Below the pieces are notes generated by a model that was given only the letters and a program-made list of their open reading frames with translations, was not told the origin of the DNA and searched no databases. This document shows, piece by piece, positions 1,909-21,430 of a stretch of DNA of 64,000 nucleotides (position 1 is its first letter; every line of letters starts with the position of its first letter). A program made the position numbers and the translations under genes. Origin of the DNA: an uncultured Patescibacteria group bacterium (GTDB lineage Bacteria > Patescibacteriota > Minisyncoccia > Phycocordibacterales > UBA918); assembly GCA_934699595.1 (NCBI GenBank), contig CAKUWT010000001.1, positions 135,839 through 199,838 of the forward strand, in the 5' to 3' direction.

Positions 1909-1912
1909 CCCA

Positions 1913-3031: not shown

Positions 3032-3090
3032 AATTAGTCCATTTTAGCACAAGCTGTGCTAAACTATTTTAACCTAAATAAATCATCATT

Positions 3091-3546: not shown

Positions 3547-3649
3547 ATACTGAAGGGTCGCTTCGTGAGACGGCGGCAACAAAAATAGTGGGCGGAACCA
3601 AAGGTTCCGCCCACTATTTTCTCTCCACCCTCTTTTCTACACCAAAATA

Positions 3650-4243
3650 CTAAATTCCTCGCTTTCCCAACTGCTCTACTTCTCGCAACCAACTTTGTCG
3701 TTTTTTGTCAGACACTTTCTGGACCGGCCCTAACGATGTGACGTTAGTACGGATTCCAGCAAATTCTAAAATGGCGTACTGGATCTCATTAGTATAATCC
3801 CCATAATTCCACCAAGCCATAAACGGATGATAGGAGCCAGACAAAATAATCACTCGTGCCGTTCTGCCAGCAAGCAGGCGGTCGGTCTTATTGGTATCAG
3901 CGCGATTAATAAAAGCAAAGCCAGACAGCCAAATACGGTCAAATAATCCTTTTAAGATTGCTGGCATGGCACACCACCAGTTCGGGTAAACGATCACCAA
4001 ATGATCACTATTCTTAATCGCTTCTTGCACTACCACCAAGTCTGACTCTAACAACTGCTCCTCGTTGTAGCCCTTACGCAACACTGGGTCAAACTCTAAC
4101 TCACCCACATTTACCTGAGTTACGTCATGTCCTGCTTCAGTAGCAGCAGCAGCATAATGTTTTGCTACTAAGCCAGTAAACGATTCTATGTCTGGATGAC
4201 CACAGATGACCAAAATCTTTTTAATCATAACTCTCGATATCAT
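3650..4243 (-). CDS. NAD(P)H-dependent oxidoreductase, flavodoxin-like fold (NQO1/MdaB-like)
   Basis: KILVICGHP...SFTG...VIVYPNWWCAMPAILKGLFDRIW is typical of the Flavodoxin_2 / NAD(P)H dehydrogenase (quinone) family. The start may instead be the internal MIKKIL at 4228. Confidence 0.7.
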   Translation of the reverse strand: MISRVMIKKILVICGHPDIESFTGLVAKHYAAAATEAGHDVTQVNVGELEFDPVLRKGYNEEQLLESDLVVVQEAIKNSDHLVIVYPNWWCAMPAILKGLFDRIWLSGFAFINRADTNKTDRLLAGRTARVIILSGSYHPFMAWWNYGDYTNEIQYAILEFAGIRTNVTSLGPVQKVSDKKRQSWLREVEQLGKRGI

Positions 4244-4290
4244 ACATCATCGTAGGACATTAGAAACTAGCCGCTTGTTAATTGGAAAAG

Positions 4291-4325
4291 CAGCCGGGCC
4301 ACCTTCGTGGCCCGGCTGGTTTTTA
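4291..4325. terminator. Hairpin terminator downstream of the minus-strand gene 4343..4657
   Basis: CAGCCGGGCCAC-cttc-GTGGCCCGGCTG is followed by a T-run. Confidence 0.5.
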
Positions 4326-4342
4326 CCCATATTCTTTCACCC

Positions 4343-4657
4343 TTATTGTCGCAGGCTACCGTCCGGATTAAACCGCCCAGCCGAACCCATTTGCATCTTC
4401 ATGAATTGCTCACGAGTTTCTGGACTCATAGCGGCCATGATCTCTTTTTGATACTTCGGCAACACCTTCATCGCGGCCTTCATTTGGTCGTTACCATTAG
4501 TTTTTAACTCCGCCTGAATTTCTTTGGCGATAGTCTCAAATAACTTTGGATCCTTCTCCAACATCTCCATAATCATCGCCTTTTGCTCTGGCGGTACATT
4601 CTTCATCTGAGAATCTACCAATTTCTTGATAGCAAAATTTTTTACTTTTCCAAACAT
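4343..4657 (-). CDS. Hypothetical small Lys/Met-rich helical protein (104 aa)
   Basis: Clean ORF with protein-like composition and its own terminator. I recognise no family. Confidence 0.5.
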   Translation of the reverse strand: MFGKVKNFAIKKLVDSQMKNVPPEQKAMIMEMLEKDPKLFETIAKEIQAELKTNGNDQMKAAMKVLPKYQKEIMAAMSPETREQFMKMQMGSAGRFNPDGSLRQ

Positions 4658-4755
4658 ACTGGTCTATTCTAACATAAGTTATTTTTAATTCTAAAACTTG
4701 ATTTATTTTAAAAATATGTTTAAATAGTGACAGATTACTTTTGGGAGGGTCTAGA

Positions 4756-4983
4756 ATGACCAAGGAGGAAGAACAGCTACATTGCGATTTTCATCACTGG
4801 TGTTCTACAAACAAGATTCCGATACAGGATAGATTTCGTCGCCTGGAGGGACACTTGGCTGATTTCTACATTGAGAAGAACGTCCCCTTCTCATCGTTTT
4901 CTTTAGCCGCAGATGTGCGGTTGTTACGATCGATTGCCGCCAGGAATCGATCAAAAAAGAGCGCGCGCATCAAAGCGGTTTGA
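4756..4983 (+). CDS. Hypothetical small protein (75 aa) with Cys/His cluster HCDFHHWC
   Basis: A GGGAGGG SD sits 8 nt upstream of ATG 4756. A strong intrinsic terminator follows immediately. Confidence 0.5.
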   Translation: MTKEEEQLHCDFHHWCSTNKIPIQDRFRRLEGHLADFYIEKNVPFSSFSLAADVRLLRSIAARNRSKKSARIKAV

Positions 4984-5002
4984 AATCCAAAACGGTAACC
5001 CA

Positions 5003-5031
5003 CCTGGGCCACTCTGTGGCCCAGGTTTTTT
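5003..5031 (+). terminator. Rho-independent terminator
   Basis: CCTGGGCCAC-tctg-TGGCCCAGG followed by tttttt. Confidence 0.6.
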
Positions 5032-5061
5032 GTCCCTATTTTTTATTCACAATAAATAAAC

Positions 5062-5802
5062 TTAGTCCTCCAGCCACCTTGGTATCACCCGTTCGCCACG
5101 TACCGCAATTTTATCCGCCTCTTCAATGCGAAACTCTCCCACCTGCGTCCGACGAAGATTTTGCAACACTGCTGGATAGCCAAGACGCCTCCCTAACTCT
5201 TTAGCCAGCGAACGAACGTAAGTACCGCTACCTACTCGGAAGCGTATCGTCACCACCATCAAAGCTTCTGTTTGATGATACTCCACTCGCATCAGCTCCG
5301 CTTCTTCCACTCGCATCAGCCGCTTTGGTAATTCTGCCTCGCTCAACATCTCTCCTTTGGCCAACGCTCGTCGAGCGCGCTGATAATAAGTCACCCCGTC
5401 TTTTTTAATGGCACTAAAAGCTGAGACTGTTAGCTCCGTCTCCCCGACCAAAGAAGTCAGTGCTTTAACAATCTCTCCATCCTCCAACTTTGGCACGGCT
5501 ACTTTCTCAGTGATTTCTCCCTCCATATCGTCAGTAGTACGCGCTTCACCAATTCTAATCTCTGCCAGATATTCCTTATCAAGCTTGATCAGCTCAGTTA
5601 ATTTCTTAGTCCCTGGTCCAACCCCAAGAATCATCAATCCCGTTGCCAACGGATCCAACGTACCCGCATGCCCCACCTTCCTTACACCTAACTGTCTACG
5701 TAAACTAGCCACTACTGCAAACGAGGTCACGCCGTACGGTTTATCCAGTAGATAAATCTCTTTTATTTCTGGTTTTTCTTTTCTCGCTTCCATACTAATC
5801 AC
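5062..5802 (-). CDS. truB: tRNA pseudouridine(55) synthase TruB
   Basis: KPYGVTSFAVV...GHAGTLDPLATGLMILGVGPGTKK is the TruB catalytic motif with the Asp in GTLDP. Confidence 0.9.
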   Translation of the reverse strand: MISMEARKEKPEIKEIYLLDKPYGVTSFAVVASLRRQLGVRKVGHAGTLDPLATGLMILGVGPGTKKLTELIKLDKEYLAEIRIGEARTTDDMEGEITEKVAVPKLEDGEIVKALTSLVGETELTVSAFSAIKKDGVTYYQRARRALAKGEMLSEAELPKRLMRVEEAELMRVEYHQTEALMVVTIRFRVGSGTYVRSLAKELGRRLGYPAVLQNLRRTQVGEFRIEEADKIAVRGERVIPRWLED

Positions 5803-6302
5803 TAAATTTTATCAACGCGACAATGCTGACAAGCCCCCACTTCACTATGTTCTCGTTGCCACTTTTGCAAAACCGCAATAGACGTGCCTCTAGTACGTTC
5901 GTGATGGCGCAAACTTTGCAGTCGTACTTGGTAGTCTGGCATAATTTTAGCCACCTCTGCCCAGTACTGTGGTGAATGATTGAGTTCTCGTAGATGGCAC
6001 AGTTCATGCACAATAATGTACTCGCGCAGGCAAATAGGCAGAAATAACAATTTATAACTAAAGTTAAGATTACCCAAAGATGAGCAACTGCCCCAACTAC
6101 GTTTTTGATTTCGGATGGCGATGCGTCCGTAGGTAAATCCTTCACGAGCGGCAAGATTTGCCACCTCTGCCACAATCACCCGCTTCGCTTCTGACTTATA
6201 CCGCTGATAAGCCTGCGCGCTTGGCGACAGCCGTCGCGATTTCTTGGCCCTCTTGGCTACCCCACCTCTAGTAGACCGCCGTCCTGTCAAAAAACCCAAC
6301 AT
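5802..6302 (-). CDS. YgjP-like metal-dependent hydrolase (DUF45, SprT/M48-like HExxH)
   Basis: YIIVHELCHLRELNHS carries the HExxH...H motif of the DUF45 family. The basic N-terminus overlaps the truB start by 1 nt. Confidence 0.7.
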   Translation of the reverse strand: MLGFLTGRRSTRGGVAKRAKKSRRLSPSAQAYQRYKSEAKRVIVAEVANLAAREGFTYGRIAIRNQKRSWGSCSSLGNLNFSYKLLFLPICLREYIIVHELCHLRELNHSPQYWAEVAKIMPDYQVRLQSLRHHERTRGTSIAVLQKWQREHSEVGACQHCRVDKI

Positions 6303-6328
6303 TACCCAGTTTTGTTTATTAAACCAAC

Positions 6329-8032
6329 CTAAGCTTTATCCGCTAGCAAAATCGCTAGCCGTAGCAGACGTAGAGTTTCATAGTCATACTCACCCTCTGT
6401 CGCTTCATACAAAGGTTTAAGTTTTTCCAGTCCAGTCTCCACTCCGGCGGCTACCTGACGCACCTTCTCCACATCAATTTTTTCAATTCCTAACTCTTCC
6501 ACCAATGGCCACACTTCCACCACATCTAGACTGTCACTCGCCAACAACTGCTCTACATGTCCAACAATGGTAGACATCGCCAAGTTGCGCACTTTAGCCA
6601 CCTCTCTGATGCTCTTCCCCTCTTTAAGTAAATACAAAGTCTGTTCAGTGGTGCTTTCTTTTTTGATACGCTCGGCCGGGGCCGCGCTCTCAATCGGTGT
6701 ATCTTTATCAATAAACTTCCCACCTTTAGAGATCACAAATTGTTTCTGCAAAGCTACCAACTCCTCTTCAGCCATTTCTTGAAAAGTCTCCTCGGCTGAT
6801 TCACTCTCCTCACGGAAACCAGCGTCGCGACGTCGTACTTCTGGATCGACCTGGAGAGCATTTGGATGCATACCCAACACTTTCAACCCCGCTAAAGACC
6901 GCACTCGCGATAGTGCCACATAACCCTGTCCAAACACAAAAGCCTTAGACAAATCAATCTCAGCCGCGTCCAAACTCATTCCTTGACTTTTATGCACCGT
7001 CACTGCCCATGCCAAGCGTAGTGGCACCTGCTCAATACTGGCCATCACCTTACCGTCCTCCATCATTTCCCAACTCTGCGGTTTAATGGTCAGTTTTCTT
7101 TTGTCAGTCGTTTCAATTACTGGCCAGTTGTCGGTTCCGGAAAAACCCACCACTCGTGCCATAGTGCCATTCACATAACCTTCTTCAAAATTATTCTTAG
7201 TGCACATCACCATTGCCCCTTCTTTCAGCACCAGACGTTCAGGTGACAAACATTGCTTGGTCAACGACTCCACCCGCGCCTTAGCTCCACGACCAGACAT
7301 CTTAAAAGTGCGTCCCGTACCAGGTAAGGACTTAAGATGACTTTCATTGACGCTATCTACATCAGCGTTGTGTGTATAAAGACGTGTCGGCTCAATACCT
7401 TCATACTCAATTTCAGTCTGCTCATTCAACAAAGTAAAATGATCCTCCTCAATCTCACCGCTGCGGATGGCGGATAGGAGTGATAGCAGTAACTCATCTT
7501 CTTGTCGGTGTTGCTCACCCAGGTAGCAAATTAGCGGCCGCATCCGCTCCCAGGTATGGCTTTGAAAAGCGTAGCGCTTAATCTCACCGTGACGGGCGAT
7601 TGGCGGTAACTGGAAAAAATCCCCCACCAAAACTACTTGCAGACCGCCAAAAGCCTCGTCACGGTTACGGATAGTCCGACAAATTAGCTCCACCAAATCT
7701 AAACTCTTGCCATCTAACATCGAGATTTCGTCAATCACCAAGACATCAGTTTTTTTAATTCGCTTCATCAGCTTCTCACGGCCAGTAATCGTCTCCAGCT
7801 CACCTCGCGTCAAGTCATTCTTAATACCCAAGCCACTCCAGGAATGAATCGTCATGCCGCCAAGATGTGTAGCTGCGATCCCGGTCGAAGCGGTCACCGC
7901 TACCGTCAAGCCGGTGGCTTCCAGCCAGGCAATGTACTCATTGATCACATAAGTTTTTCCCGCCCCCGGCTCACCCGTTAAGAAGACATTAGCCCCAGTT
8001 TTGAGAATTTCTAAAGCCTGCGATTGAATCAT
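6329..8032 (-). CDS. PIF1/RecD-like ATP-dependent DNA helicase with C-terminal HTH domain
   Basis: Walker A GEPGAGKT, VLVIDEISML and VGDFFQLPP (Pif1/RecD family) are present. The C-terminal region is sigma-70 region 4-like. Confidence 0.8.
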   Translation of the reverse strand: MIQSQALEILKTGANVFLTGEPGAGKTYVINEYIAWLEATGLTVAVTASTGIAATHLGGMTIHSWSGLGIKNDLTRGELETITGREKLMKRIKKTDVLVIDEISMLDGKSLDLVELICRTIRNRDEAFGGLQVVLVGDFFQLPPIARHGEIKRYAFQSHTWERMRPLICYLGEQHRQEDELLLSLLSAIRSGEIEEDHFTLLNEQTEIEYEGIEPTRLYTHNADVDSVNESHLKSLPGTGRTFKMSGRGAKARVESLTKQCLSPERLVLKEGAMVMCTKNNFEEGYVNGTMARVVGFSGTDNWPVIETTDKRKLTIKPQSWEMMEDGKVMASIEQVPLRLAWAVTVHKSQGMSLDAAEIDLSKAFVFGQGYVALSRVRSLAGLKVLGMHPNALQVDPEVRRRDAGFREESESAEETFQEMAEEELVALQKQFVISKGGKFIDKDTPIESAAPAERIKKESTTEQTLYLLKEGKSIREVAKVRNLAMSTIVGHVEQLLASDSLDVVEVWPLVEELGIEKIDVEKVRQVAAGVETGLEKLKPLYEATEGEYDYETLRLLRLAILLADKA

Positions 8033-8130
8033 AATTACCCCTCATCTTAACATGCTTACTAATTTCAGACGAAATAGACAAAAACTAGGAATTTTCTATA
8101 ATAAGACAGTTAATTAAATAGTAATCACAT

Positions 8131-8751
8131 ATGGACAATAAAAACAGCTGGCAGAATAAAGAAATCCTCACCGCTTTGGTGGTAGGAGTAATCGTTGGAG
8201 TCGGCTTTAGTCTCATTTTCAATAATAATGAGTCAAAGAGTAATCTCATTAAGGAGTATTACGAGATTGAAAACGCCGTCTCGGTTAGTCCGCACGACCT
8301 CAAGGTCACCTTGCAGCAAGGTATTATGGACAAAAACTTTATCGTGGTCGACCTCCGCTCAGCCGGTCAGTACGCTGCGGGACACATCCCAGGAGCGATT
8401 AGCGTTCCTGCCAGCTCCGAAGATGGCGAAGATAATCGTGCCCGACTGGTGGAGACTTTCCGAGGCCTGGAAGATATCAAAGGTGATCGCGACATCATTA
8501 CCTACTGTAACAGCGCCGCCTGTATGCTGAGTCGTAAAGTAGGTTTGGCATTAGCCGAAGAAGGTATCTATGTAAAACATCTCAATATCGGCTGGAATGA
8601 ATGGGAGCATTATTGGACTCTTTGGAATGGTAAAGACGGTGTTGACCCAGAGCACTTTATTGCTCGTGGTGAAGAACCGGGCGAAGCTCGCCTGGACGAC
8701 GATGAAAAAGTACTCGCTCCTTGCGCAGCTGATGCGGAGTTTAGCTGTTAA
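8131..8751 (+). CDS. Rhodanese-like domain protein with N-terminal TM helix
   Basis: FIVVDLRSAGQYAAGHIPGAISVP...ITYCNSAACMLS places the rhodanese active-site Cys in a CNSA context. Confidence 0.7.
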   Translation: MDNKNSWQNKEILTALVVGVIVGVGFSLIFNNNESKSNLIKEYYEIENAVSVSPHDLKVTLQQGIMDKNFIVVDLRSAGQYAAGHIPGAISVPASSEDGEDNRARLVETFRGLEDIKGDRDIITYCNSAACMLSRKVGLALAEEGIYVKHLNIGWNEWEHYWTLWNGKDGVDPEHFIARGEEPGEARLDDDEKVLAPCAADAEFSC

Positions 8752-8775
8752 TGTTGTAGCAAGTTTTAAAAAAAT

Positions 8776-8811
8776 AAACGACGGACTCAAAAAGTCCGTT
8801 GTTTATTTTTT
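8776..8811 (+). terminator. Rho-independent terminator
   Basis: AAACGACGGAC-tcaaaaa-GTCCGTTGTTT followed by atttttt. Confidence 0.55.
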
Positions 8812-8856
8812 ACCTTTGTGAATAAACTATCATCATCTGCTTGACAATAGGTTAAA

Positions 8857-10836
8857 ATGAAAGCAATTGTTCTTATGTCCAGCTCTCCATCAGTGACTTC
8901 TTCAGCCCGCGCCAAGACCGTATCGCCTAAGAAAAAGGTGGGTAAGAAACCAGCTTCTAAAATTACCAAAAAAGCTGTCCCTAAAAAGACTACCAAAAAA
9001 ACTCCCGTTAAAATAGCTACCAAAGCCGCTGTTAAAAAGACTCAAGCTAAAGTGACTAAAAAAACTCTCCGGACCGCCGCCTCATCGACCAGCTCTCGAC
9101 GACGAGTTGCCGCTGCAATCAAGCAAGGTCTAGTGACCGGTATCAAAAGGCATCCTCTTGGACACCTCATGATAGAACGAGAACTACGTAAACTCGGTTT
9201 CCGTGGCAAATTACTAAGTGACGAAGTCTCATTGCACAAATACAGCACCGATGAAAGTATCTTTGCCATCGCTCCTCAGTTGATTTTGGTTCCTAAAGAT
9301 GAACGTGATGTCCGCTTAGCTACTGAAGTAACTGGCTGTCTTGTTAAGCGCTTCCCTTCTATCTCTCTCACTCCTCGTGCCGCTGGCTCTGGTTTAAGTG
9401 GTGGCTCTCTCACTGATTCTATCGTGCTTGACACTATGCATCTTAATACCATTGAACCAGTGCAGGTCAGTAAGAGTGGCATCACTATAACTTGCGAACC
9501 TGGAGCGATGTGGCACGACGTGGAAAAAGCCTTGGCAAAGTACGATGCTTACCTACCCTCCTTCCCCGCCTCTAAAGATCTCTGTACCATTGGCGGCAGC
9601 GTGGCCAACAACGCCGCTGGACCTGACTCACTACGCTATGGTCACACCGCAGATTGGGTAGAAAGTTTAGAGATCATTTTGCATGACGGCAAAAACTATC
9701 TCATCAAACCTCTCACTTACAAAGAATTCACCAAACAAAGTAAACAAAAAAATGAGCTCGGAAGAATCACCCGCGAGATTTGGGAGTTGATTTCCAAAAA
9801 TCAAAAAGTTATCCAGGAAAATACCCCAACTACAACTAAAAACTCTGCCGGTTACGCGCTTTGGTCTGTCCTTAATACTTCCGTGACTAAATTCAAAAAA
9901 GGTGACGGTACTTTTGACCTTACTCGCCTCATCGCTGGCAGCCAGGGCACCGTCGGCATCATCACCAAAATCACCATGCGAGCCTTGCCGATTCCGAGCC
10001 AGACCACACTTATTTCGGTACCTGTTTTTGCTCTAGAAGACGCTCCTCATGTCGTGGAGACCGCCCTTAAATACAACCCAATTAATCTAGAGCTGTTTGA
10101 TGCCGCCTCTTACGAACTAGCTCTGCAAAATCCAGATTTTTTTAAAAATTATTTAAGTGGCTTGGCATATTATCGTACCATGTTTGCAATGTATTCTACT
10201 TATCATGTGCGCTACAAGGGCCGACTGCCTGAACTCTCCCTCTTAATAACTTTGGATAAGGAAACCCTTAAAGACAATTCTCTGCCCGCTATTTTGGTGG
10301 CACTTTCTACCAAAAACTCGCGCGCGCGGGTAGTGCGTGACCGCTACGAGGCTGAGGCATTGTGGCAAGTCAGACGCGCCAGCTACTCTCTTTGTAAACT
10401 TCAGTCCCCCAAACTTCGTCCGGCCGCCTTTTTAGAAGACATGGTAGTACCACCAGAGCATCTGGCAACTTTCTTCATCGGCATCAAAAAGCTGCTACGC
10501 GAGTTTCGAGTACAGGCCACTGTCCATGGCCACGGTGGTAACGGTCATTTTCATTTTTATCCACTGATTGATTTCACCAATCCTACCACCCCCCTCTTAG
10601 TAGAAAAGATGGCAGAAAGATTTTTCAAACTTGCGGTAAAATACGATGGTAATATCTGCGGTGAGCATAACGACGGCATTATCCGCACACCACATTTGAA
10701 CAAAATATTTTCCACTAAAATGATTAAGCTGTTTGAAATTAATGAAAATATTTTTGACCCTGATGACATCTTTAATCCTGGCAAAAAAGTTAATCCACGT
10801 TTTGATATCAAGACCTCAATTAGAAAGGCAAACTAG
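8857..10836 (+). CDS. FAD-linked oxidase (FAD_binding_4 / GlcD-like) with a roughly 100-aa lysine-rich N-terminal tail
   Basis: The FAD-binding region GGSVANNAAGPDSLRYG and a C-terminal FAD-oxidase_C-like HGHGGNGHFHFYP are present. The N-terminus is a KKxxKK/TKK repeat. TTGACA lies 10 nt upstream of the ATG with no SD. Confidence 0.75.
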   Translation: MKAIVLMSSSPSVTSSARAKTVSPKKKVGKKPASKITKKAVPKKTTKKTPVKIATKAAVKKTQAKVTKKTLRTAASSTSSRRRVAAAIKQGLVTGIKRHPLGHLMIERELRKLGFRGKLLSDEVSLHKYSTDESIFAIAPQLILVPKDERDVRLATEVTGCLVKRFPSISLTPRAAGSGLSGGSLTDSIVLDTMHLNTIEPVQVSKSGITITCEPGAMWHDVEKALAKYDAYLPSFPASKDLCTIGGSVANNAAGPDSLRYGHTADWVESLEIILHDGKNYLIKPLTYKEFTKQSKQKNELGRITREIWELISKNQKVIQENTPTTTKNSAGYALWSVLNTSVTKFKKGDGTFDLTRLIAGSQGTVGIITKITMRALPIPSQTTLISVPVFALEDAPHVVETALKYNPINLELFDAASYELALQNPDFFKNYLSGLAYYRTMFAMYSTYHVRYKGRLPELSLLITLDKETLKDNSLPAILVALSTKNSRARVVRDRYEAEALWQVRRASYSLCKLQSPKLRPAAFLEDMVVPPEHLATFFIGIKKLLREFRVQATVHGHGGNGHFHFYPLIDFTNPTTPLLVEKMAERFFKLAVKYDGNICGEHNDGIIRTPHLNKIFSTKMIKLFEINENIFDPDDIFNPGKKVNPRFDIKTSIRKAN

Positions 10837-10930
10837 TCTCATTACTAGGGCCGTATTTGCCCGCACCGCTTTACAATCTGATTTTGATTGCTAAGATAGT
10901 GAAAGGGAACGTTCTTATGGGGTAAAGACA

Positions 10931-11998: not shown

Positions 11999-12216
11999 CA
12001 CTCTCACCTCCTGCACCTTTAAACACTGAGCCCAAAAAGAACTCCGCCTACCCAACATTAAACAGGACAAACCTTAACTAAGCAACCCTACTCAGCCAGT
12101 TTGGCATTCTATACTTAATTTGCTATCATAACTGCACCTTTTTATTGTCTTCCTGACAAAAAAGGCGCGACATAAGTGTGACATCTGCCACAAGTGACAA
12201 TACACTTATGCGATTT

Positions 12217-12288
12217 GGCCCTATCGTCTAACGGCTAGGACACATCCCTCTCACGGATGAAATCCGGGTTCGATTCCCGGTAGGGTCA
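12217..12288 (+). tRNA. tRNA-Glu (anticodon CUC)
   Basis: Cloverleaf by hand. The acceptor is GGCCCTA/TAGGGTC (one G-U). D stem GTCT/GGAC. The anticodon stem CATCC/GGATG carries the loop CT-CTC-AC. The T arm is CCGGG-TTCGATT-CCCGG and the discriminator is A. No CCA is encoded. Confidence 0.8.
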
Positions 12289-12628
12289 CAAAACGAGACT
12301 TCGTCTCGACTTAAGGAGCGCGCCTCTCATCATAGACCAGCCAGAGGACGATATCGACAGTAAGATGATTAAGGATATTGTCGAGCAGGTCTGGAAAGCA
12401 AAGACTAAGCGACAGCTTATCTTTGCCAGCCACAGTGCAAACTTCGTAGTAAACGGTGATGCGGAACTTGTTGTGTGTTGCGATTACGTTAAAGCAGGAG
12501 TTCAGACCAGCGGCATGATCAAGCTTATTGGTGCTATCGACAACGAGAAGATCAAGGAAGAAATCACATTAGTCACCGAGGGAGGCCGTGCGGCGTTCAA
12601 GCTTCGTATGGATAAATACGGATTTTAA
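12289..12628 (+). pseudogene. C-terminal remnant of an ABC/AAA_21-type ATPase (Walker B, D-loop and H-loop only), truncated at the tRNA
   Basis: The frame is open from inside the tRNA 3' end. It reads ...SAPLIIDQPEDDIDSKMIKDIVEQVWKAKTKRQLIFASHSANFVVNGDAELVV..., which has Walker B (LIIDQPE), D-loop and H-loop (ASHS) motifs. There is no Walker A, ABC signature or credible N-terminus. Confidence 0.45.
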
Positions 12629-12630
12629 TT

Positions 12631-12663
12631 AAAAAAAGCCCCGGACACTTGCGTGCCCGGGAC
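12631..12663 (-). terminator. Terminator of the flotillin gene
   Basis: The hairpin CCCGG(A)CAC-ttgc-GTG(C)CCGGG has a poly-A on the plus strand, giving a poly-U on the minus-strand transcript. Confidence 0.45.
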
Positions 12664-12684
12664 GGGAGTCTCATGCGAGACAAG

Positions 12685-14055
12685 TTACTCGGTCTTGGCT
12701 TCCGGTGCGCCATCACCGCTCGGAGCGGCTTCGGTCACCTTGGCCGGAGCCGGGTTGGTCAGCTTGCCGACGATGGCTTGGCCAAGCGGGCTCTGCGCGA
12801 ACGCTTCGACCGCCGAAGCCAGATGGGTACCACCCTTGGAGGTGAAGAGATCCATGACGTTGGTCATGCCTTCGCCGGGCTTGCCCGTGTTGGCGATGAC
12901 CTTGACGTCGGCCTTCTGCAGCGCTTCGGCTTGCTTGCCGCCAACCACCACATAGCCCTTGATGCCTTCGATGGTCATCAGGTACTGTTGGTAGCCGACG
13001 TTGCCGCCGATTTCCTTCGCCAGGACGATCTGCGCCTCGACAGGAGCGAGTTGCATGGCCTTCTCGGCCGCTGCATTCGCCACGCCGACTGCTTCGATAC
13101 CCTGGGCACGCTTGCGCTCGGCTTCGAGCTGGCCATCGGCGATGATCACCGTGGTCTGCTTCTCTTGCTCGGCGGCCACGACCTGCTTGTCCTTCTCGAT
13201 TTCGGCCGTGCGCACTTCTTCGACGCGCTTGACCGCCATGTCGCGCTCCTTGGTCTCCTTCTCCTGCGTCAGAACTTCCTGGCGCGCGAGCTGGTTGGCG
13301 ATGCCGACAGCCTTGTCCTTCTCGGCAGTGCGCTCACCGACGGCCTGTTCGGCCTGCTGGCGCTGGATGTCGACTTCACGCTTGGCGGTGATTTCGGCCA
13401 TCTCGGCGGCCCGCATGTTCTCGGCAACGTCACGCCGGCTCTCCATCTCGATCTGCGAAGTCTTCTTCGCCATGATGTTGGAGATGACCTGGCTGCCACG
13501 ACCGTCACGGATGTCCATCAGTTCCATGGACTTGACCGGCTCGACACCCCACTGCTTGAGCTGTTCGACGACTTCAGCCGTGAAGGCTTCGCCGAACTTG
13601 GAACGCTCGAGCATGATGTTGTCGATCTTGTCGCCGGCGAGGACCTTGCGGACCGCGCCCTGGACGATCTGGTGCAGCTGTGCCTGGAGCTCGTCGATGC
13701 TGGCCACCCGCTGTGCGGCGAGTGCCGTGTCGGCGATGCGGAAGAACGCCGTGACGTCCACCATGAAGGGAACGCGATCGGCGTCGTAGGCTTCGTAGCC
13801 GTCGAGCGAGAGGTCGAAGTTGCTCACCGGCAGCTCGATGACCGTGACCCCGAACTTCGGAATCCAGCTGGGCCAGCGATAGTAGACGTTGCCGCCTTCG
13901 AGGCCGGTGCCGTAGGGCATCGTGGTGCGACCGCGCTGGACAATGTGCACCATGTTGGTGCTCACGACCTTTCGGTAGAGGATGGCGAGAATGATGGCAA
14001 AGACCACCAGTACGCTGATCAGGACGGACCCGATCAGAACAGGGATGTTGAACAT
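12685..14055 (-). CDS. Flotillin / SPFH (band 7) family protein with very high G+C
   Basis: There is an N-terminal TM helix, then the SPFH domain and a long EA-rich coiled-coil typical of flotillins (YqiK/FloT-like). I chose the start MFNIP at 14055 because GGAGAAG lies 6 nt upstream. Codons are strongly GC3-biased, unlike the rest of the window. Confidence 0.8.
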   Translation of the reverse strand: MFNIPVLIGSVLISVLVVFAIILAILYRKVVSTNMVHIVQRGRTTMPYGTGLEGGNVYYRWPSWIPKFGVTVIELPVSNFDLSLDGYEAYDADRVPFMVDVTAFFRIADTALAAQRVASIDELQAQLHQIVQGAVRKVLAGDKIDNIMLERSKFGEAFTAEVVEQLKQWGVEPVKSMELMDIRDGRGSQVISNIMAKKTSQIEMESRRDVAENMRAAEMAEITAKREVDIQRQQAEQAVGERTAEKDKAVGIANQLARQEVLTQEKETKERDMAVKRVEEVRTAEIEKDKQVVAAEQEKQTTVIIADGQLEAERKRAQGIEAVGVANAAAEKAMQLAPVEAQIVLAKEIGGNVGYQQYLMTIEGIKGYVVVGGKQAEALQKADVKVIANTGKPGEGMTNVMDLFTSKGGTHLASAVEAFAQSPLGQAIVGKLTNPAPAKVTEAAPSGDGAPEAKTE

Positions 14056-14738
14056 GTGCTTCTCCTGTGGAATTGGAGGGTATTCTCCACTTTCCACATT
14101 AACATACTATGACGTATCTGTCAACCCTACGTAATGGTTCAATACCTTCGCAACACCATAAGCTATAGGTTGCTCTATCTTGCCTACAGAGTAGCTAATA
14201 CAGGCAACGGGGCTTATACAGAAACGCCACCGAAGTAGCTCACACGAAACAACACCGAGCAGGCCACGCGAGCGGATGCGAGCGTGCCTATGCGAGGTGG
14301 TTGCACAGTGTGAGCGGACTCTCGATATACCACACGCGCTGTATACGGGAAGCGCGCCTCGCTTGACGCGAGGACGGAAAAAAGCGTAGTGGTAGGCTCT
14401 CAAGTGAGATGGAGACTATAACGAAGCTTTTTGGAGGACGAAGCGGCGACCCCAAACCAAAGAAATATCCTTTCAATTTTTTGTCGGCTCCTCCCCAGAC
14501 CCCTCCACCGAAAAAATGATTGTAAGGAAATTTCTTTGTTTTGGGTGCCGAGTGCAGCGAGGCAGCGAGGCGCGCCAAGCTCCAATGCGTACGCGGAAGT
14601 ATAAAGCCACCACGCGCTCGGCGCGTTGCAGGTTCACCGCTTCGCGGTGTAGTGAGTTAGAGCGCGATGCGCTAATACATCACAAAGTAACAAAACTGTA
14701 ATTTTACAATATAAGTCGACCAACTATACAGCATCAAA

Positions 14739-14769
14739 TTAACTACATAGTCTGGACCTATGTAGTTAA
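14739..14769. repeat. 12-bp perfect inverted repeat TTAACTACATAG-N7-CTATGTAGTTAA
   Basis: Seen directly in the sequence. It lies in AT-rich DNA between the GC-rich island and the deacetylase gene. It may be an operator or a recombination site. Confidence 0.4.
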
Positions 14770-14896
14770 AAGGAAACAATGCTCCTATAGGTTCATTTTA
14801 TGTAGAAGAATCTAGTTATAAATAAAACTGCTCAATAATAAACTTCCTTACACCCCACTCATAGACTCCTCTTCTCTCTAGCGTTACAATAAAATT

Positions 14897-16429
14897 ATGA
14901 GAAAAACTTTACTTATTTTAGGAGTGGTGTTTTTGTTGTTGGCGATCGGTGCTGATGTTTGGTTTAGTCGCGAAAACAAATTTTTTGCTATAGACAATAA
15001 CCAGATCGGTCTAGAACCTGACGAATATATTGTCCCATCAAAATACAAAGATATTAAAGTTAAAACCATCAATGAGCAATCGGATGATGAGCAACATCGC
15101 TACACCCTTCACGCCTCTTGGCCAGTCACTGATAATGACACCATCAATCAGACAGTTGAAAACTTCAGCAACAACTTTATTGAAGAATATCGGACTCGGT
15201 CAGTTGAGATTGAAGCCTCTCGCCTAGAATATATGGCTGAAACCGGTGAGGACGGTGTCACCTTCCATGCTGACTACAACCTATCTTTTGACGTGGCATT
15301 TGCGAGCGATGATTACCTAGCTTTTGCTTTTACACGTTACCGCAATACTGGGAATACTGGCACTCAAGAAGCTGCCACGATGATTTTTAACCGACAGTCA
15401 GGTGAAGAGGTACCAGTGGCCAATCTTTTCGTTAGCAATGATTATTTAAATAGATTATCGGATTTAGTTAGGGAAGATTTATATGCTCGGGTCAATAAGG
15501 AAGCACCAGAATCGGAGTTTGAATCTAGAGAGGAAAAAGAGAGATGGATAAACAATATGCAGAAAATGATTGACAACGGCACCGAACCAACAGCAGAAAA
15601 CTTTAAAAGCTTGGTGATTAATGACGAGGGAAAAATGGCTGTCTATCTTGACCGCTACCAGGCCGCACCAGGATATTGGGGTGTTTTAGAAATTGATCTT
15701 CCTTTAGAAAGCTTCATCGAATATTTGACCCCGCCAGTGCTAGAGATTTTTAATTTAGAAAATAAGCCCAGTGAACAGGCTGCTCCCGAGGAGCAGCCTG
15801 TTGCTAATGACCGTACTTCTAATGACAACGTAAACTGTACGATAGATAAGTGTATTGCCCTTACTTTTGATGACGGACCTTCAGTATACACTGAAGGTCT
15901 TTTGAAAACTTTGGTTAATAAGGGAGTGAAGGCGACTTTTTTTATGCTTGGCAGCCATGCCAAGGTGCAACAACAAACCGTAATCGATGTCAGTAAAGCC
16001 GGTATGGAAATCGGCAACCACACTTGGGATCATAAACAACTGACTAAGCTTGACGAAGCTGGTGTTGACAGCGAAATCAACGACACCCGTTCCCTGCTAG
16101 AAAAGATTACTGGTAAGTCCGTGGCTCAACTACGTCCTCCTTATGGTTCTTTCAATGACACTGTTAAGCAAATTGCTAACGGTCCAATTATCCTCTGGAA
16201 TGTTGATACTGAGGATTGGAAACATCGTGACAGCGCTTATATCAAAAATTACGTGGCAACTCATGCCAAACCAGGTGCTATTATTCTCATGCACGACATC
16301 CACCCTACCACTGTGGAGGCCGTTCCCACCATGGTGGACGAGCTAAAACAGGCTGGCTATACCCTCGTCACCGTTAGCGAATTATTTGGGGGACATTTAG
16401 TGACGGGAAAGATTTATTCTGGTAGATAA
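14897..16429 (+). CDS. PdaC-like polysaccharide/peptidoglycan deacetylase (N-terminal DUF3298/DUF4163-like region plus NodB/CE4 domain)
   Basis: A TM/signal N-terminus is present. The CE4 motifs are TFDDGP, HTWDH, LRPPYG and ILMHDIH. Confidence 0.75.
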   Translation: MRKTLLILGVVFLLLAIGADVWFSRENKFFAIDNNQIGLEPDEYIVPSKYKDIKVKTINEQSDDEQHRYTLHASWPVTDNDTINQTVENFSNNFIEEYRTRSVEIEASRLEYMAETGEDGVTFHADYNLSFDVAFASDDYLAFAFTRYRNTGNTGTQEAATMIFNRQSGEEVPVANLFVSNDYLNRLSDLVREDLYARVNKEAPESEFESREEKERWINNMQKMIDNGTEPTAENFKSLVINDEGKMAVYLDRYQAAPGYWGVLEIDLPLESFIEYLTPPVLEIFNLENKPSEQAAPEEQPVANDRTSNDNVNCTIDKCIALTFDDGPSVYTEGLLKTLVNKGVKATFFMLGSHAKVQQQTVIDVSKAGMEIGNHTWDHKQLTKLDEAGVDSEINDTRSLLEKITGKSVAQLRPPYGSFNDTVKQIANGPIILWNVDTEDWKHRDSAYIKNYVATHAKPGAIILMHDIHPTTVEAVPTMVDELKQAGYTLVTVSELFGGHLVTGKIYSGR

Positions 16430-16483
16430 GTCTTTAGATTAAACAAATTTTACTTGCTGGGTCTTTTATAAAATATACGTCGG

Positions 16484-16518
16484 ATAAACCCCGGGCGGAG
16501 GCAAAGCCTCCGCCCGGG
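16484..16518. repeat. GC-rich palindromic hairpin element, copy 1
   Basis: The sequence is ATAAACCCCGGGCGGAGGCAAAGCCTCCGCCCGGG. The 28-bp core CCGGGCGGAGGCAAAGCCTCCGCCCGGG recurs exactly at 17176. Confidence 0.6.
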
Positions 16519-16620
16519 TCTGGCTGATTCAAACGATTGTTTACTGGTCTGGTCTATGTTATTCTCGAAAACAGTCCTGGTGCGATTCCAGCTCCGTTCC
16601 TTTTTGCCAAGGAGGCAGCC

Positions 16621-17082
16621 ATGTCGGACATCACCGTCTCATATAAACTAGAGATTATCAAAGATGCAGTGCCGTTCCACAACGCACAAATCACGAACCA
16701 AGAGATCTCTGGGCGGAAGACTTCCCGTTATCTGATCGTTAGCTTTATCGTCCCAGATCCATCCAGGCCTGCCCTCTTGGTGGTGGAAGGTCATGCAAGT
16801 CACCAGTTTGGCTTTCTCGTGTTCGACCGACACCTCAAGCAGCTGCCTGTCTCTGAGAAGCAATCATTTTGCTTGGGTGCCGGCGATGTACCCTACCTGT
16901 CACTAGAGGAGTTAAGGAGAAGATACCCCTGGATAAGAATACTGGACCAGGAACTCTGCTTCAACAATTTAACCAAGCAGTTCAAGGTCATGGGATTGTG
17001 GAGAGAAATAGTCTCTTCTGGCTATCCCTGGGTCCGCAAGCAACAGCTGATAGAGGAGTTGAAGAACATCATTCTTAGATAA
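16621..17082 (+). CDS. Hypothetical protein (153 aa) bracketed by the two palindromic repeat copies
   Basis: I chose the start MSDITV because AAGGAGG lies 5 nt upstream. Its GC is higher than its neighbours. I recognise no family. Confidence 0.5.
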   Translation: MSDITVSYKLEIIKDAVPFHNAQITNQEISGRKTSRYLIVSFIVPDPSRPALLVVEGHASHQFGFLVFDRHLKQLPVSEKQSFCLGAGDVPYLSLEELRRRYPWIRILDQELCFNNLTKQFKVMGLWREIVSSGYPWVRKQQLIEELKNIILR

Positions 17083-17175
17083 CTCCCCCAAATAGCAAAG
17101 CAAACCGCCGCAGTCAATGACAGCGGCGGTTTTACTAATTTCACTGATAGCTTCTTGGCCAGGATGGAGAATCCT

Positions 17176-17209
17176 CCGGGCGGAGGCAAAGCCTCCGCCC
17201 GGGGTTTAT
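17176..17209. repeat. GC-rich palindromic hairpin element, copy 2
   Basis: The sequence is CCGGGCGGAGGCAAAGCCTCCGCCCGGGGTTTAT. Its right flank GGTTTAT is the reverse complement of the left flank ATAAACC of copy 1. Confidence 0.6.
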
Positions 17210-17266
17210 TACTCATCTCCAGACAATTTTGTTATTAGCTCTCCATTTTTTCTTCCTCGATCACCA

Positions 17267-19657
17267 CTACTTCGCCACCAGGTCATCAATCTCACACACT
17301 CCCGCTACGCAAGCCATGGCTTTGGCGCCTTCGGTATTATCGCTTTGTTCATAGGTGACGATTTTGGCAAAATCTACACCCGCAAAATTCTTCAACATTT
17401 TTTCGTAAGTCTTTTTATCAATGGCTTCGTATGGAGCTAACTGATACACATGATTACTGCGTGGTAAGAAAGATAAACCACCAACGATATCCCAATTTTG
17501 GTAAACCCAGTTACCAGTTTCCAGCCACTCATCCTCTCCAACCGAGACGGTCACGGACGGGTTGTGTTCAGTGAAATTTTCTTTCACTACCTTCCAATGC
17601 TCTAGCTGATCAATAGCGGTCAAATCATCCTGAAAGATTTTCCCTGGTGCCTTCACCGGAAACTCCAATACAAAAGTAGTAGCAGTCTCTTCAGTGTAGC
17701 CTACCTCTGGATGATACGGCACTCCTTGATCCTTTAGCATTTTAAATAACGAGTCTGTGGCTGAAATTCGAACTCGGCGGATATAGTACGGGCTGTGACG
17801 CGTATGCATACCACTGGAAGCATCGGTTAATTGTGAGACAGTTCCTGATGGCTTTACCGCAGTGACTGAAGTGGAAGGGTTGATACCCATTTTAGCGGCG
17901 TAAACCTTATTCCATTTAATTGCTTCCTTGCGTAATTTCTGAAGAATTTGCGGATCACGTGCAGCTTCTGAATCCCACTGTCCGGTAATAGAAATACCTA
18001 AGAGTCTCTCCGCTTCACAATTCTCCTGCCACTCTTTAGACAGATATGGGAAGTAGGTTAAAGTAGATTGGTAGGTTCCTAGAATAGCGGCAATTTTTAT
18101 TTTGCGCAGCAAAGTTTCTTCAGTATCATCTTCACGAGCTACTACTTCTGATAGGTTACAAAATTGTTTAGACTTCAGAATGATCTCTCCGCAAGGGTTA
18201 GTTCCCACAGATTTGATAATTTCTCCATTTTGGATATAGCCAGTTTGTTCCCACTCCGCGATACGTCGCTCAGGCAGTTGACCGGTTAAGGCACCTCGAT
18301 TGAAGATGCCTCGTTCACCAGAACCACTCTTCGCGAGAGACAACCACTCTTCCAAGAAGGTGACATTATCTGGCTTCTCGTTATAGACAGCAGAATTATT
18401 TGCCATGGCGCGCTGCGGCTCGGTGTTCCAAAACTGCCCGTCTTTAGCGTGACGCATTTGCTCATCTTCTAAATCAGATAACGAGATCAGGGCACTGCGA
18501 CGCACGCCACCCGCCACCACAATCTGGCCGATGTAGCAGACAATATCGTGTACATCAAGAGTGGTTAAGCGACGACCCTGACGAGAGAGAATCTTTTCTC
18601 GTGCATAGCGCATCAGGTCAATCAGGGGCTGGGGCCCAGAACTCTTACCGCCCATGGTGTGTAGACGCGCTCCTGCTGGACGCAATTTAGAGTAATCAAA
18701 GGCGATATCCTTGCCGGCAAACCAAGCCTTTAGACCAATAGTGAGAGAATCGGCCCACCCTTCTTTACTATCAGCTACCACATGCGTAGCTAGCTTTTCT
18801 CCGGTCTGCCTCTGGATCTGGGGCAAGGCCTGCACGTTTGCTTCTTCTACAGAAAAGCCTACCCCGGCACCACACATAGAGAGGTACATAATCTCTGCAA
18901 AATCTTCCAACCGAGCCGGAGCAATGAAAGAGCAGTTGTAACCAGTGACGTTAGTTTTTCGAGTGGCCTCGCCTGCTCCCCACATCAAACGCATCGACGG
19001 CATGGCCTCTTGTTTTAGGATCGCTTGACGTACTTCAGCATAATCTTTTTCAGAAATAGCAGCACCAATATTCTCTCGCATGAAGTCTACGTAGCGATCG
19101 ACTGTCTCAACCCAAGTTTCTCGCCTTTGCTCATTTTCAATCCACCGTGAATAGGTACGGTAATAGATAAACTCAGCCAAAGGGTTGCGGAAGTACTGCT
19201 TGGATTCTTCTGCCATTTTTTTCACGTGCTCTGGTACCACATTCCCCTTCTCCCGTTCTTGTGAACGTTTTTCACGATACAAAATATAAGCTTTGGCTGT
19301 CTTAGGGAATTGCAAATTGATTAACTCAGCCTCCACAATATCCTGAATACCCTCCACCGTTGGTGCTGGATTTTCGTAAACCTTTAAGTGTTCTTTGTAA
19401 AGCTTAATCACCCCCTTCTCCACCACTTTAGCTACCTGCTTAGCTTCTTTAGTACCACCCTCAAAGGCGGCCTGCATAGCCTTAGTAATGGCTACCTCAA
19501 TCAACTCCGGATTATAATCAACTAGCGTACCGTCCCGCTTCTGGACCTGATTAGGCTTGGTCGCCGACTTAGTAGCCTGCTTTGATTTAGCTGACTTTCC
19601 GATAGTTTGCTTGGTTTTCTTTAATTCTTTAGGCATAAAACTAACAATATTTACCAC
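17267..19657 (-). CDS. nrdJ: Ribonucleotide reductase, class II (adenosylcobalamin-dependent, NrdJ-like) with N-terminal ATP-cone
   Basis: An ATP-cone (KRDGTLVDYNPELI) is present, the active-site motif is TNPCGEI, and length is 796 aa. The start codon is GTG, with AGGAGG about 14 nt upstream. Confidence 0.8.
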   Translation of the reverse strand: MVNIVSFMPKELKKTKQTIGKSAKSKQATKSATKPNQVQKRDGTLVDYNPELIEVAITKAMQAAFEGGTKEAKQVAKVVEKGVIKLYKEHLKVYENPAPTVEGIQDIVEAELINLQFPKTAKAYILYREKRSQEREKGNVVPEHVKKMAEESKQYFRNPLAEFIYYRTYSRWIENEQRRETWVETVDRYVDFMRENIGAAISEKDYAEVRQAILKQEAMPSMRLMWGAGEATRKTNVTGYNCSFIAPARLEDFAEIMYLSMCGAGVGFSVEEANVQALPQIQRQTGEKLATHVVADSKEGWADSLTIGLKAWFAGKDIAFDYSKLRPAGARLHTMGGKSSGPQPLIDLMRYAREKILSRQGRRLTTLDVHDIVCYIGQIVVAGGVRRSALISLSDLEDEQMRHAKDGQFWNTEPQRAMANNSAVYNEKPDNVTFLEEWLSLAKSGSGERGIFNRGALTGQLPERRIAEWEQTGYIQNGEIIKSVGTNPCGEIILKSKQFCNLSEVVAREDDTEETLLRKIKIAAILGTYQSTLTYFPYLSKEWQENCEAERLLGISITGQWDSEAARDPQILQKLRKEAIKWNKVYAAKMGINPSTSVTAVKPSGTVSQLTDASSGMHTRHSPYYIRRVRISATDSLFKMLKDQGVPYHPEVGYTEETATTFVLEFPVKAPGKIFQDDLTAIDQLEHWKVVKENFTEHNPSVTVSVGEDEWLETGNWVYQNWDIVGGLSFLPRSNHVYQLAPYEAIDKKTYEKMLKNFAGVDFAKIVTYEQSDNTEGAKAMACVAGVCEIDDLVAK

Positions 19658-19912
19658 TTATTAATAAACTTCCTCCTTTTAGGAGTTAATTGTAGCAGTG
19701 TATTCACCCAAGGCTGATGTGGATAAAGCATCTCGATACAAAATTATTGCTCTGTAAAATCTCACCTTGTAAATACGCTTACTTAGCTACTTATTTCTGC
19801 CGGGCAAAATATTTTCTGGTTAAAAATGTAAACAGTGGCGGGGAGCAAAGCTCCCCGCCACTGTTTATTCCCTCCAACCTCTCCTACCCGCACCCCATCG
19901 AACTCGCTTTAG

Positions 19913-20464
19913 TTAAAACTCCACCTGGCACACCAAGGGATTAGCTAAATCACGCAGCAATCGCCAGATAGTATAGGCCAGCACTAAGATTGCCACCAGT
20001 TGCAGCTCCACACCGCCAAATGGCAACAGCACTAAAATACTACTGATACCGATAAAGGGAATCAGTGCGGAAATTAAAGCAGTGCCACAAGCCGCACAAC
20101 CAACGCCAATGATCCCGAGCAAGAATCCGAACGTGCCAGTGGCCGCATCTTTTTTACTAAAACGTTGTGCCCGACGACTGCGGACTACCAGCAAAACTGA
20201 GTTGAGCCCGAGTAAGGCACCGAGCAGAGCTGCCACCACAACATTAAAAGTGGAAATACTTTGGTTGAGTGGCCACAATAAGCTACCTGCTAAACGCGCA
20301 CCCTCACCCCATCCGTTCAGGACAATAACTTGCTTAAATAAGCCAAAGTTTGGTGTCAGAATCACCATCATCACTACCAAAACTGTTGCCGACACTAAAG
20401 CCGCCCAAGTAGAGACTTCCTTTAGCACTCCACTGAGAATAGTTAGCTTGCGATATTTTCTCAT
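19913..20464 (-). CDS. Polytopic membrane protein with a CxxC (CAAC) in a TM segment
   Basis: Length is 183 aa with 4-5 predicted TM helices. It sits adjacent to and upstream-oriented with a DsbA-like gene, so it may be its redox partner. Confidence 0.5.
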   Translation of the reverse strand: MRKYRKLTILSGVLKEVSTWAALVSATVLVVMMVILTPNFGLFKQVIVLNGWGEGARLAGSLLWPLNQSISTFNVVVAALLGALLGLNSVLLVVRSRRAQRFSKKDAATGTFGFLLGIIGVGCAACGTALISALIPFIGISSILVLLPFGGVELQLVAILVLAYTIWRLLRDLANPLVCQVEF

Positions 20465-20519
20465 GATTAACTATTACTGATCAAGCCGAAATAATAGCTA
20501 CCACACCTGACCTGGGTGA

Positions 20520-21314
20520 CTAGTTACCCAGAGCCAAATCAAGCAACTGCGTGACCGTAGCAGCAGATTGCGCGCCATTAACCGGGTACTTAGTCCCGTC
20601 AGAAGCTACAATCACACTAAACGGTGTCCCCTCCACCCCCATTGCTAAGCCGTTGTTAGCTTGTGCGATAATTTTTGCATCATAAGCATCAGAAGCCAAG
20701 CACTTTGCAAACTCACTCACATTCAAACCCATGTCTTTAGCGACCGCTTCAGCAAAGTCGTCACCGGGTAGTTTGTTGGTACCCGCTTTTGCATAAACGA
20801 GATCAGCGTACTCAATAAACGCTTCATTCCCTCTTTCGGCCACTGCACATTCCGCCCCTCGCGCTAAAGCAAAACTATTATCACCTCCAACAATTGGCAA
20901 ATGGCGGAAGACAAAATTTACTCGGTCACCATACTTAGCCTCAATACCCTGCAAAGTATCATGAAATTTCTGACAAAACGGACAAAGAAAATCTGAGTAG
21001 TTCACCAGTGTCACTTTGGCGTCTCGATTACCGATACTGTGATCATCAGCTGCTACTGGTGCCATTTCTTCCAGACTTTTTTCAGCAGTGTCTGAAGTTT
21101 GTGCTTTACCGTTGTTTGTGGCAATTGTTCCGAGAGTAGTCGGCAACACAACAAAAGTCACGTAGATGATTAAAAAGAAAGTCGCGGTAGAAATAAAAGC
21201 GTTAAAAAATAATAAATACCGGTCGCCAGTCATCACTCCTTGAATATCCTGCTCATCCTCACCCCTGCTCCGAAAAATTCTCTTGAAAAATGTCATATGA
21301 GAACATGGTAACAT
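20520..21314 (-). CDS. DsbA-like thiol:disulfide oxidoreductase (thioredoxin fold) with N-terminal TM anchor
   Basis: CPFCQKF is the CxxC active site, followed by a typical DsbA helical insertion. The TM helix is FFLIIYVTFVVL. Confidence 0.7.
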   Translation of the reverse strand: MLPCSHMTFFKRIFRSRGEDEQDIQGVMTGDRYLLFFNAFISTATFFLIIYVTFVVLPTTLGTIATNNGKAQTSDTAEKSLEEMAPVAADDHSIGNRDAKVTLVNYSDFLCPFCQKFHDTLQGIEAKYGDRVNFVFRHLPIVGGDNSFALARGAECAVAERGNEAFIEYADLVYAKAGTNKLPGDDFAEAVAKDMGLNVSEFAKCLASDAYDAKIIAQANNGLAMGVEGTPFSVIVASDGTKYPVNGAQSAATVTQLLDLALGN

Positions 21315-21430
21315 TTTTTACTAAATATTTTTTAGTGGTAGTGAATTAATCTGTCAAAAATCAATCTTCGAAGAAACTACCGATAATTTTCTTCACAGTG
21401 TCATATAAAATCCCTAAGGTCACCCAGTAA

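Follow-up and report, generated by a model that had tools for sequence, protein, structure and literature searches.

The DNA analysed here is a stretch of 64 kb (hereafter the window) from an uncultured Patescibacteria group bacterium, in which ARAGORN and Rfam find one tRNA gene only, an intact tRNA-Glu(CTC). Immediately downstream of this gene lie a short filler, the 3' end of a gene for an ATPase, and a convergent Band_7 gene with a terminator of its own, followed by a stretch in which no gene can be recognised (Table 1). The open reading frame listed at this locus encodes 87 aa; its frame, however, is open upstream to position 12284, the preceding stop codon being a TAG (12281-83) that lies within tRNA-Glu(CTC). 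Translated from 12284, the frame comprises 114 codons (GHKTRLRLDLRSAPLIIDQPEDDIDSKM...FASHSANF...DKYGF) and includes a Walker B/D-loop (LIIDQPEDDID, 12326-12358) and an H-loop (FASHSANF, 12422-12445), the residues of which are mostly invariant in the alignment with relatives. The fragment contains neither a frameshift nor a stop codon, and its GC content is not atypical (46.6% vs. 45.7% for the window). The exact protein encoded by the 87-aa open reading frame (P0005) is present in NCBI, ENA and Logan assemblies, and the order of tRNA, stump and Band_7 gene is identical in the independent assemblies L001 (ERZ27286916) and L002 (ERZ28614527) and in a 454-kb NCBI contig.

Table 1. Features next to tRNA-Glu(CTC) in the window, and stretches sharing the Band_7 region, by contig (positions refer to the window unless a contig is named)
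Feature	Positions	Strand	Basis or remark
tRNA-Glu(CTC), intact	12217..12289	+	ARAGORN; Rfam RF00005, 60.7 bits; left edge of the non-syntenic region
Junction filler, 28 nt	12290..12317	.	Unrelated to tRNA or TrlF
TrlF-derived 3' gene fragment	12318..12628	+	Last 103 codons and stop of a ~929-codon gene
87-aa open reading frame	12365..12628	+	ORF list; ATG 12365, TAA 12626-28
Intrinsic terminator of the convergent Band_7 gene	12638..12663	-	Terminator scan; strong; 11-bp stem + TTTTTTT
Band_7/SPFH (flotillin-like) gene, convergent	12685..14055	-	Pfam Band_7, E=6e-15
Stretch of ~740 nt without recognisable gene	14158..14896	.	Between the acquired block and a DUF3298/polysaccharide deacetylase gene
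Band_7 shared stretch, window	12630-14157		311 nt of TrlF DNA beside Band_7; left flank tRNA-Glu(CTC)
Band_7 shared stretch, L006	L006 663-1305		At least 660 nt of TrlF DNA beside Band_7, frame open to contig end
Band_7 shared stretch, L132	L132 59-1814		261 nt of TrlF DNA beside Band_7, different truncation point; then a ribosomal protein gene
Band_7 shared stretch, L134	L134 3-1532		No TrlF DNA; homology starts right after the TrlF stop (same for L134-136)
Band_7 shared stretch, L133	L133 4673-5940		No TrlF DNA; homology only inside Band_7

We found that the fragment matches, far beyond what chance would give, the C-terminal end of the TrlF family of AAA-like ATPases (NCBIfam NF045780; E=9.7e-42, 143.7 bits); the end-to-end alignment takes in the final 105 of the 944 positions (840-944), Walker B/D-loop and H-loop included. 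The curated cut-off of this model, which has 944 positions, is 350 bits, and full-length coverage is required for membership; the fragment, which scores below the cut-off with partial coverage, is thus derived from a member and is not itself a complete member. The defence protein Ppl was also matched, at lower scores (PADLOC PDLC02208, E=7.8e-23, 78.5 bits; NCBIfam NF042955, 83.6 bits, E about 1e-24, far under the 1000-bit cut-off of that model), as was the C-terminus of the Spaf_1101 family (NCBIfam; weaker than NF045780). Against Pfam AAA_21 (PF13304; E=1e-5, profile 262-302 of 304) the score of 26.2 bits falls just under the 27-bit gathering threshold because the query is only a fragment. 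With the wider set of AAA_21/OLD-type and SMC-like ATPases (AbiEii-like, GajA, AriA, PtuA, LmuB) the fragment has Walker B (hhhDxPE) and the H-loop in common, but these matches, which include PADLOC matches to AriA, GajA, LmuB and PtuA, are weak, with E values of 1e-3 to 1e-6, and extend over no more than about 40 residues.

An exhaustive HMMER search recovered 5498 relatives of the fragment, the full-length ones being 920-950 aa long, and in these the fragment always aligned to the last ~105 residues. A word-indexed search with the 114-aa query had returned only proteins of up to 200 aa, mostly contig-end fragments; we read this restriction as a property of the search or of contig ends, and stump counts taken from it are to be treated with caution. 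Judged by sequence, 12318-12628 is the C-terminal end of a TrlF-family ATPase gene that has been truncated.

Among the members of the 90% cluster to which the closest fragment (P0001) belongs is a complete protein of 929 aa, P0267, encoded on an activated-sludge contig (L007), and the 3' end of its gene is 95.5% identical in nucleotide sequence to the window (blastn; window 12318-12629 vs. L007 4265-4576). P0267 matches NF045780 over positions 1-944 with 511 bits (cut-off 350), and it carries a Walker A motif (GGRGTGKST), a signature-like SAGQQ and the same C-terminus as in the window. SMC/Rad50 matches over residues 283-715 correspond to a coiled-coil region, the match to AAA_21 reaches 41.9 bits, and the N-terminal PHP match is weak (PF02811, E=8e-5, 23.4 bits vs. 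a cut-off of 26.4; CehA/McbA metallohydrolase, E=1.6e-4); a sequence search of the PDB with P0267 gave no match. Ppl has an architecture like that of P0267, with a PHP-like N-terminus and an ABC/SMC-type ATPase, and its C-terminal lobe is homologous (E 1e-39 to 1e-50 for P0267). However, P0267 matches the Ppl model NF042955 with 171.5 bits in three separate stretches (cut-off 1000) and PADLOC Ppl with 134.3 bits, and TrlF is a separate family, usually found behind restriction, helicase or methylase genes, whereas Ppl stands alone.

Aligned with its longer relatives, the fragment lacks the Walker A, ABC signature (SAGQQ), coiled coil, PHP domain and start codon of an intact TrlF; as a pseudogene fragment, it amounts to 11% of the TrlF protein and is no functional member of the family. 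The start of the 87-aa open reading frame corresponds to an internal Met of TrlF, and even the Walker B motif lies outside this reading frame; reading the sequence 5' of ATG 12365 directly, we found nothing resembling a Shine-Dalgarno sequence. Both in DNA and in protein, the homology with intact relatives begins at 12318-12320 (comparisons with L006 and L007), and not at the tRNA, so the stump is ~103 codons long and not 110-115. The probability of meeting no stop over the ~11 codons of the filler is about 0.57, and we therefore attribute to chance the open frame that runs through the filler into the tRNA.

An earlier note on this DNA had described a frame that is open to 12284 inside the tRNA and that encodes a Walker B/D-loop and an H-loop, and had taken it for the last ~110 residues of an ABC/AAA_21-like ATPase without Walker A, signature motif or start. 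The translation and its motifs agree with the former description, and the profile matches and the alignment with the latter; what changes is the length, the C-terminal stump being as short as given above. The same note had thought of a stand-alone AAA_21 ATPase of the kind found in phage-defence modules, and here the superfamily and the defence-type clusters were right, while the family proves to be TrlF, a relative of Ppl, and not an AbiEii-type protein. The intact gene and its neighbours, which the note had proposed to recover from related genomes, were found in P0267 and in the restriction-type genes around it on L007; in the relatives the homology continues 5' of the annotated ATG, and none of them shows an intact small protein starting there.

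Over the 309 nt shared with each, 11 synonymous changes and 1 non-synonymous one separate the window from L006, and 13 and 1, respectively, separate it from L007; 4-5 changes in the fragment, 1 of them non-synonymous, fall on the window's own branch. Such few, mostly synonymous changes would fit a recent truncation; they are too few to argue for selection on the fragment, nor do they exclude it.

The filler that separates the tRNA from the TrlF homology contains a hairpin (CGAGAC-TTC-GTCTCG, 12294-12308) which, in the terminator scan, is followed on the minus strand by TTTT and is terminator-like; this hints that a minus-strand gene may once have ended between the tRNA and TrlF. The filler sequence has no exact match in viral contigs. 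The 3'-terminal 23 nt of tRNA-Glu(CTC) do not recur in the 64 kb, even with up to 3 mismatches allowed; no relevant direct repeats were found in 11-16 kb, and the genes from 10.9 to 33 kb include no recombinase or integrase domain. Likewise, tblastn of P0267 against the 64-kb window, with 12 kb on the upstream side of the stump and 51 kb on the downstream side, detected no second piece of TrlF. With its junction 28 nt past the tRNA and without an att repeat or an integrase, the locus thus gives no pointer to site-specific recombination at the tRNA end.

On the other side of the stump, the GC content shifts abruptly from about 12640, the Band_7 gene having 62% GC vs. 45.7% for the window (46% for the genome). 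Its terminator follows directly after the TrlF stop and is conserved in L006, L132 and L134; with this terminator of its own, the Band_7 gene looks like a single-gene cassette that was recently and repeatedly transferred from a high-GC donor. Searched against plasmids, it gave no match. At 92-95% nucleotide identity the gene recurs in L006, L132, L133 and L134-136, with unrelated gene content around it, and in the contigs that share it (at 60-62% GC) the remaining DNA has 37%, 43% or 46% GC. The block shared with the window, stump and Band_7 gene together, extends to about 14125-14157. Elsewhere the Band_7 gene is accompanied by TrlF pieces of varying length or by none (Table 1), and the stump may therefore have arrived in a truncated state. 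On these alignments, the stump and the Band_7 gene are recognisable as one horizontal block that was recently transferred among CPR genomes.

We reached the corresponding loci of relatives via protein matches and contig look-ups. The FAD-linked oxidase of the window has its best named matches, at about 60% identity, in Kaiserbacteria, Nomurabacteria and Paceibacteria, in line with a CPR/Patescibacteria organism, and as a query against GTDB species genomes it returned no orthologous locus, the nearest relatives being only about 66% identical. L087, whose oxidase is 66% identical, is the contig nearest to the window, and it is collinear with positions 1-10846 (RmuC, YqeY, flavodoxin-like protein, TruB, YgjP, PIF1 helicase, rhodanese and FAD oxidase), and an orthologous tRNA-Glu(CTC) is present both there and in L128. 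Past this tRNA, L087 has an entirely different gene set (12090-21900): four genes for hypothetical proteins, one for a large serine recombinase 2.7 kb from the tRNA, one for an HTH protein and three for DNA methyltransferases; in the next relative, L128, a type II CRISPR-Cas system (Cas9-Cas1-Cas2, 2245-8262) lies between the FAD oxidase and tRNA-Glu(CTC). At the divergence of L087 and L128 the intergenic DNA on both sides of the tRNA is unalignable, and the loci are compared by gene content. Among the relatives reached, none had a complete TrlF island at tRNA-Glu. By gene content, the surroundings of tRNA-Glu(CTC) are a variable hot spot for mobile and defence genes.

Two further observations concern this neighbourhood. 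The FAD-linked oxidase carries, at window 8857-9100, an N-terminal extension of ~70 residues rich in lysine, alanine and threonine (KKKVGKKPASKITKKAVPKK...), and the L087 ortholog has such an extension as well (10001-10180). We also considered whether TrlF is generally found beside tRNAs and rejected the idea, a tRNA lying within 1 kb in about 8 of the ~60 long loci, which is near chance for small genomes.

To the right of the block, a gene-free stretch as long as that at 14158-14896 is unusual for a compact CPR genome. Its open reading frames have no family matches, Rfam gives no match, and it contains a 32-nt imperfect inverted repeat (14451-14482/14514-14545); it may represent further decayed island DNA. 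The DUF3298/polysaccharide deacetylase gene that follows has no ortholog on the 762-kb contig of the relative, and its best matches are 55% identical or come from other phyla. This gene thus does not serve to mark the right edge of the variable region, and it may itself be accessory.

The neighbours of intact TrlF genes are largely of the restriction type. On L007, P0267 lies between a BPTD_3080-family restriction endonuclease (upstream, E=5e-177) and a Cas4-like PD-(D/E)XK nuclease (downstream), and at other loci the gene directly upstream is a ResIII helicase with RE_endonuc, ResIII alone, HsdR with a fused HsdM/S, R.HinP1I, or RadC. The order on Sphingobium plasmid pMI3 is methyltransferase, DEAD-box helicase, TrlF, and on an Agrobacterium plasmid a restriction endonuclease precedes TrlF. 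According to PMC11482910, Ppl combines an ATPase with a PHP domain and is an anti-phage system of one gene, the mechanism of which is uncharacterised. In the literature that we searched, no paper dealt with TrlF, and anti-phage activity was reported for Ppl only; from genomic association alone, we infer that intact TrlF is a defence gene. The window itself encodes, at 22516-27532 (22.5-27.5 kb), a restriction system of two genes, whose products are an HsdR-like helicase of 862 aa and an N6-methylase/specificity fusion of 802 aa; in L024 (5024-12787), an intact TrlF comes directly after an HsdR-HsdMS pair with this architecture. We rejected the window pair as the former operon partner of the stump: the L024 proteins are just 48% and 44% identical to it, and no link was shown.

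Relatives of P0267 that are 75-83% identical occur (L088-L103, L116) in MAGs labelled Saccharibacteria, Kaiserbacteria, Nomurabacteria, Peribacteria and WWE3 and, outside Patescibacteria, in MAGs labelled Acidobacteriota (Sulfotelmatobacter), Gammaproteobacteria and Bradyrhizobium. Such identity across phyla indicates horizontal spread by very recent inter-phylum transfer, or else mis-binned contigs. TrlF is rare in IMG/VR (2 loci). Further relics of the gene were found in three contigs: a 166-aa relic in L003 (706-1206); a copy in L004 (8279-10340), beside a large serine recombinase, in which an in-frame internal deletion has brought the beginning of the coiled coil up against the Walker B region; and, in a Saccharibacteria MAG (L118, 10001-10843), a C-terminal remnant of ~280 residues (650-929; longest open reading frame 225 aa) that abuts an 822-aa gene. 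These relics are as expected for defence genes with a fast turnover.

We therefore regard the fragment, with a probability of roughly 85%, as the dead 3' remnant of a TrlF gene that lies in an acquired block within the variable, defence-rich region of tRNA-Glu(CTC) and that lost its 5' part without the help of an integrase. The intact protein combines an N-terminal PHP phosphoesterase with a Rad50/SMC-like ABC ATPase head containing a coiled-coil insertion, and its gene is usually the distal one of restriction-modification-type operons. Keeping only the lobe with Walker B, D-loop and H-loop, the remnant can neither bind ATP nor act as a nuclease; it lacks its own promoter, ribosome-binding site and start, and its transcription is probably just read-through behind the tRNA. 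As for the truncation, we infer that the 5' 2.5 kb went through ordinary deletion or illegitimate recombination and not through an integrase acting at the tRNA. We lean somewhat towards truncation in situ at tRNA-Glu(CTC); that the gene was cut short earlier, or as it arrived together with the Band_7 block, is a possibility that we hold more tentatively.

The locus resembles decayed tRNA islands in its position at a tRNA 3' flank, in a gene content that varies among relatives and in a neighbouring gene of foreign composition, and it is unlike them in having neither an integrase nor an att direct repeat, in the 28-nt gap and in that the block also occurs away from tRNAs elsewhere. Two proposals of the earlier note are supported, with refinements. 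It had placed the truncation at the tRNA boundary; the gene is indeed truncated, yet the break lies beyond the tRNA and bears no sign of site-specific recombination. It had further suggested the relic of a defence island at the tRNA site, and here the variability of the site, with defence or mobile genes in L087 and L128, speaks in its favour, whereas a complete island at this place is uncertain given the link to Band_7 and the truncated TrlF in L132.

Indeed, the fragment could have come as passenger DNA, a foreign Band_7 piece with the donor's TrlF 3' end attached having been inserted by illegitimate recombination, such that no TrlF island ever stood at the tRNA. We take this to be possible, although we would not bet on it. 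It would account for a Band_7 gene that sits in hosts of 37%, 43% and 46% GC, in unrelated contexts and with a TrlF flank of at least 660, 311 or 261 nt or none, and it agrees with the absence of an att repeat and an integrase; independent deletions in a shared ancestral block, however, equally predict differing truncation points. Against passenger DNA, the 3' flank of a tRNA is a classic landing site of integrative islands, and that of tRNA-Glu(CTC) is variable in relatives; moreover, the terminator-like hairpin on the minus strand of the filler suggests a gene lost from between the tRNA and TrlF.

That the 87-aa reading frame, or a slightly longer one, encodes a real small protein is improbable in our judgement, whether as a free C-terminal lobe binding ATPases of the TrlF/Ppl type to modulate or poison them or in some other new role. 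An intact frame, a single non-synonymous change against 11 synonymous ones relative to L006 and 13 relative to L007, a fragment fixed in at least three assemblies and the recurrence of C-terminal TrlF relics in L003, L118 and L132 would all be in keeping with such a protein; but a synonymous bias is expected as well if most of the divergence is older than a recent truncation. The homology extends 5' of the ATG, where there is neither a start codon nor a Shine-Dalgarno sequence, the truncation points vary among relatives, and the Band_7 gene is found without the stump. In addition, the window has no intact TrlF to be modulated, and half of an ABC head, in isolation, is unlikely to fold on its own. 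Even less weight goes to the broader ideas that the TrlF lobe has been repeatedly retained (in the window, L132, L118 and L003) as a decoy or dominant-negative form of TrlF/Ppl-type ATPases, or that the TrlF 3' end and Band_7 make up a cassette which spreads among CPR by an unrecognised mechanism.

A split gene, in which the insertion of an element or an inversion parted TrlF and left the N-terminal part elsewhere, possibly to be restored by excision, is highly improbable: its sole support is a break beside a tRNA, a common integration site, while tblastn with P0267 finds nothing else in the 64 kb, the 3' end of the tRNA is unrepeated, and the left flank is collinear core genome. Least credible of all is an assembly chimera of a CPR contig with foreign high-GC DNA, since the abrupt change from 46% to 62% GC that might suggest one comes with an arrangement that is the same in L001 and L002, which derive from different samples, and in the 454-kb NCBI contig, and with a TrlF-to-Band_7 junction that is also present in L006 and L132.

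As pseudogene relics go, the dead TrlF remnant is ordinary: its family is known, and so is the kind of place in which it lies; it will not surprise a specialist and opens no long-standing question. For annotation, it means that the 87-aa 'hypothetical protein' of several assemblies should be relabelled 'TrlF-family ATPase, pseudogene fragment'. For the tiny genomes of the CPR, it provides a documented case of the quick gain and decay of a defence gene beside a tRNA, and for the family, the analysis shows TrlF to be a mobile gene, accessory to restriction-type operons and shared between phyla with an identity of about 80%.
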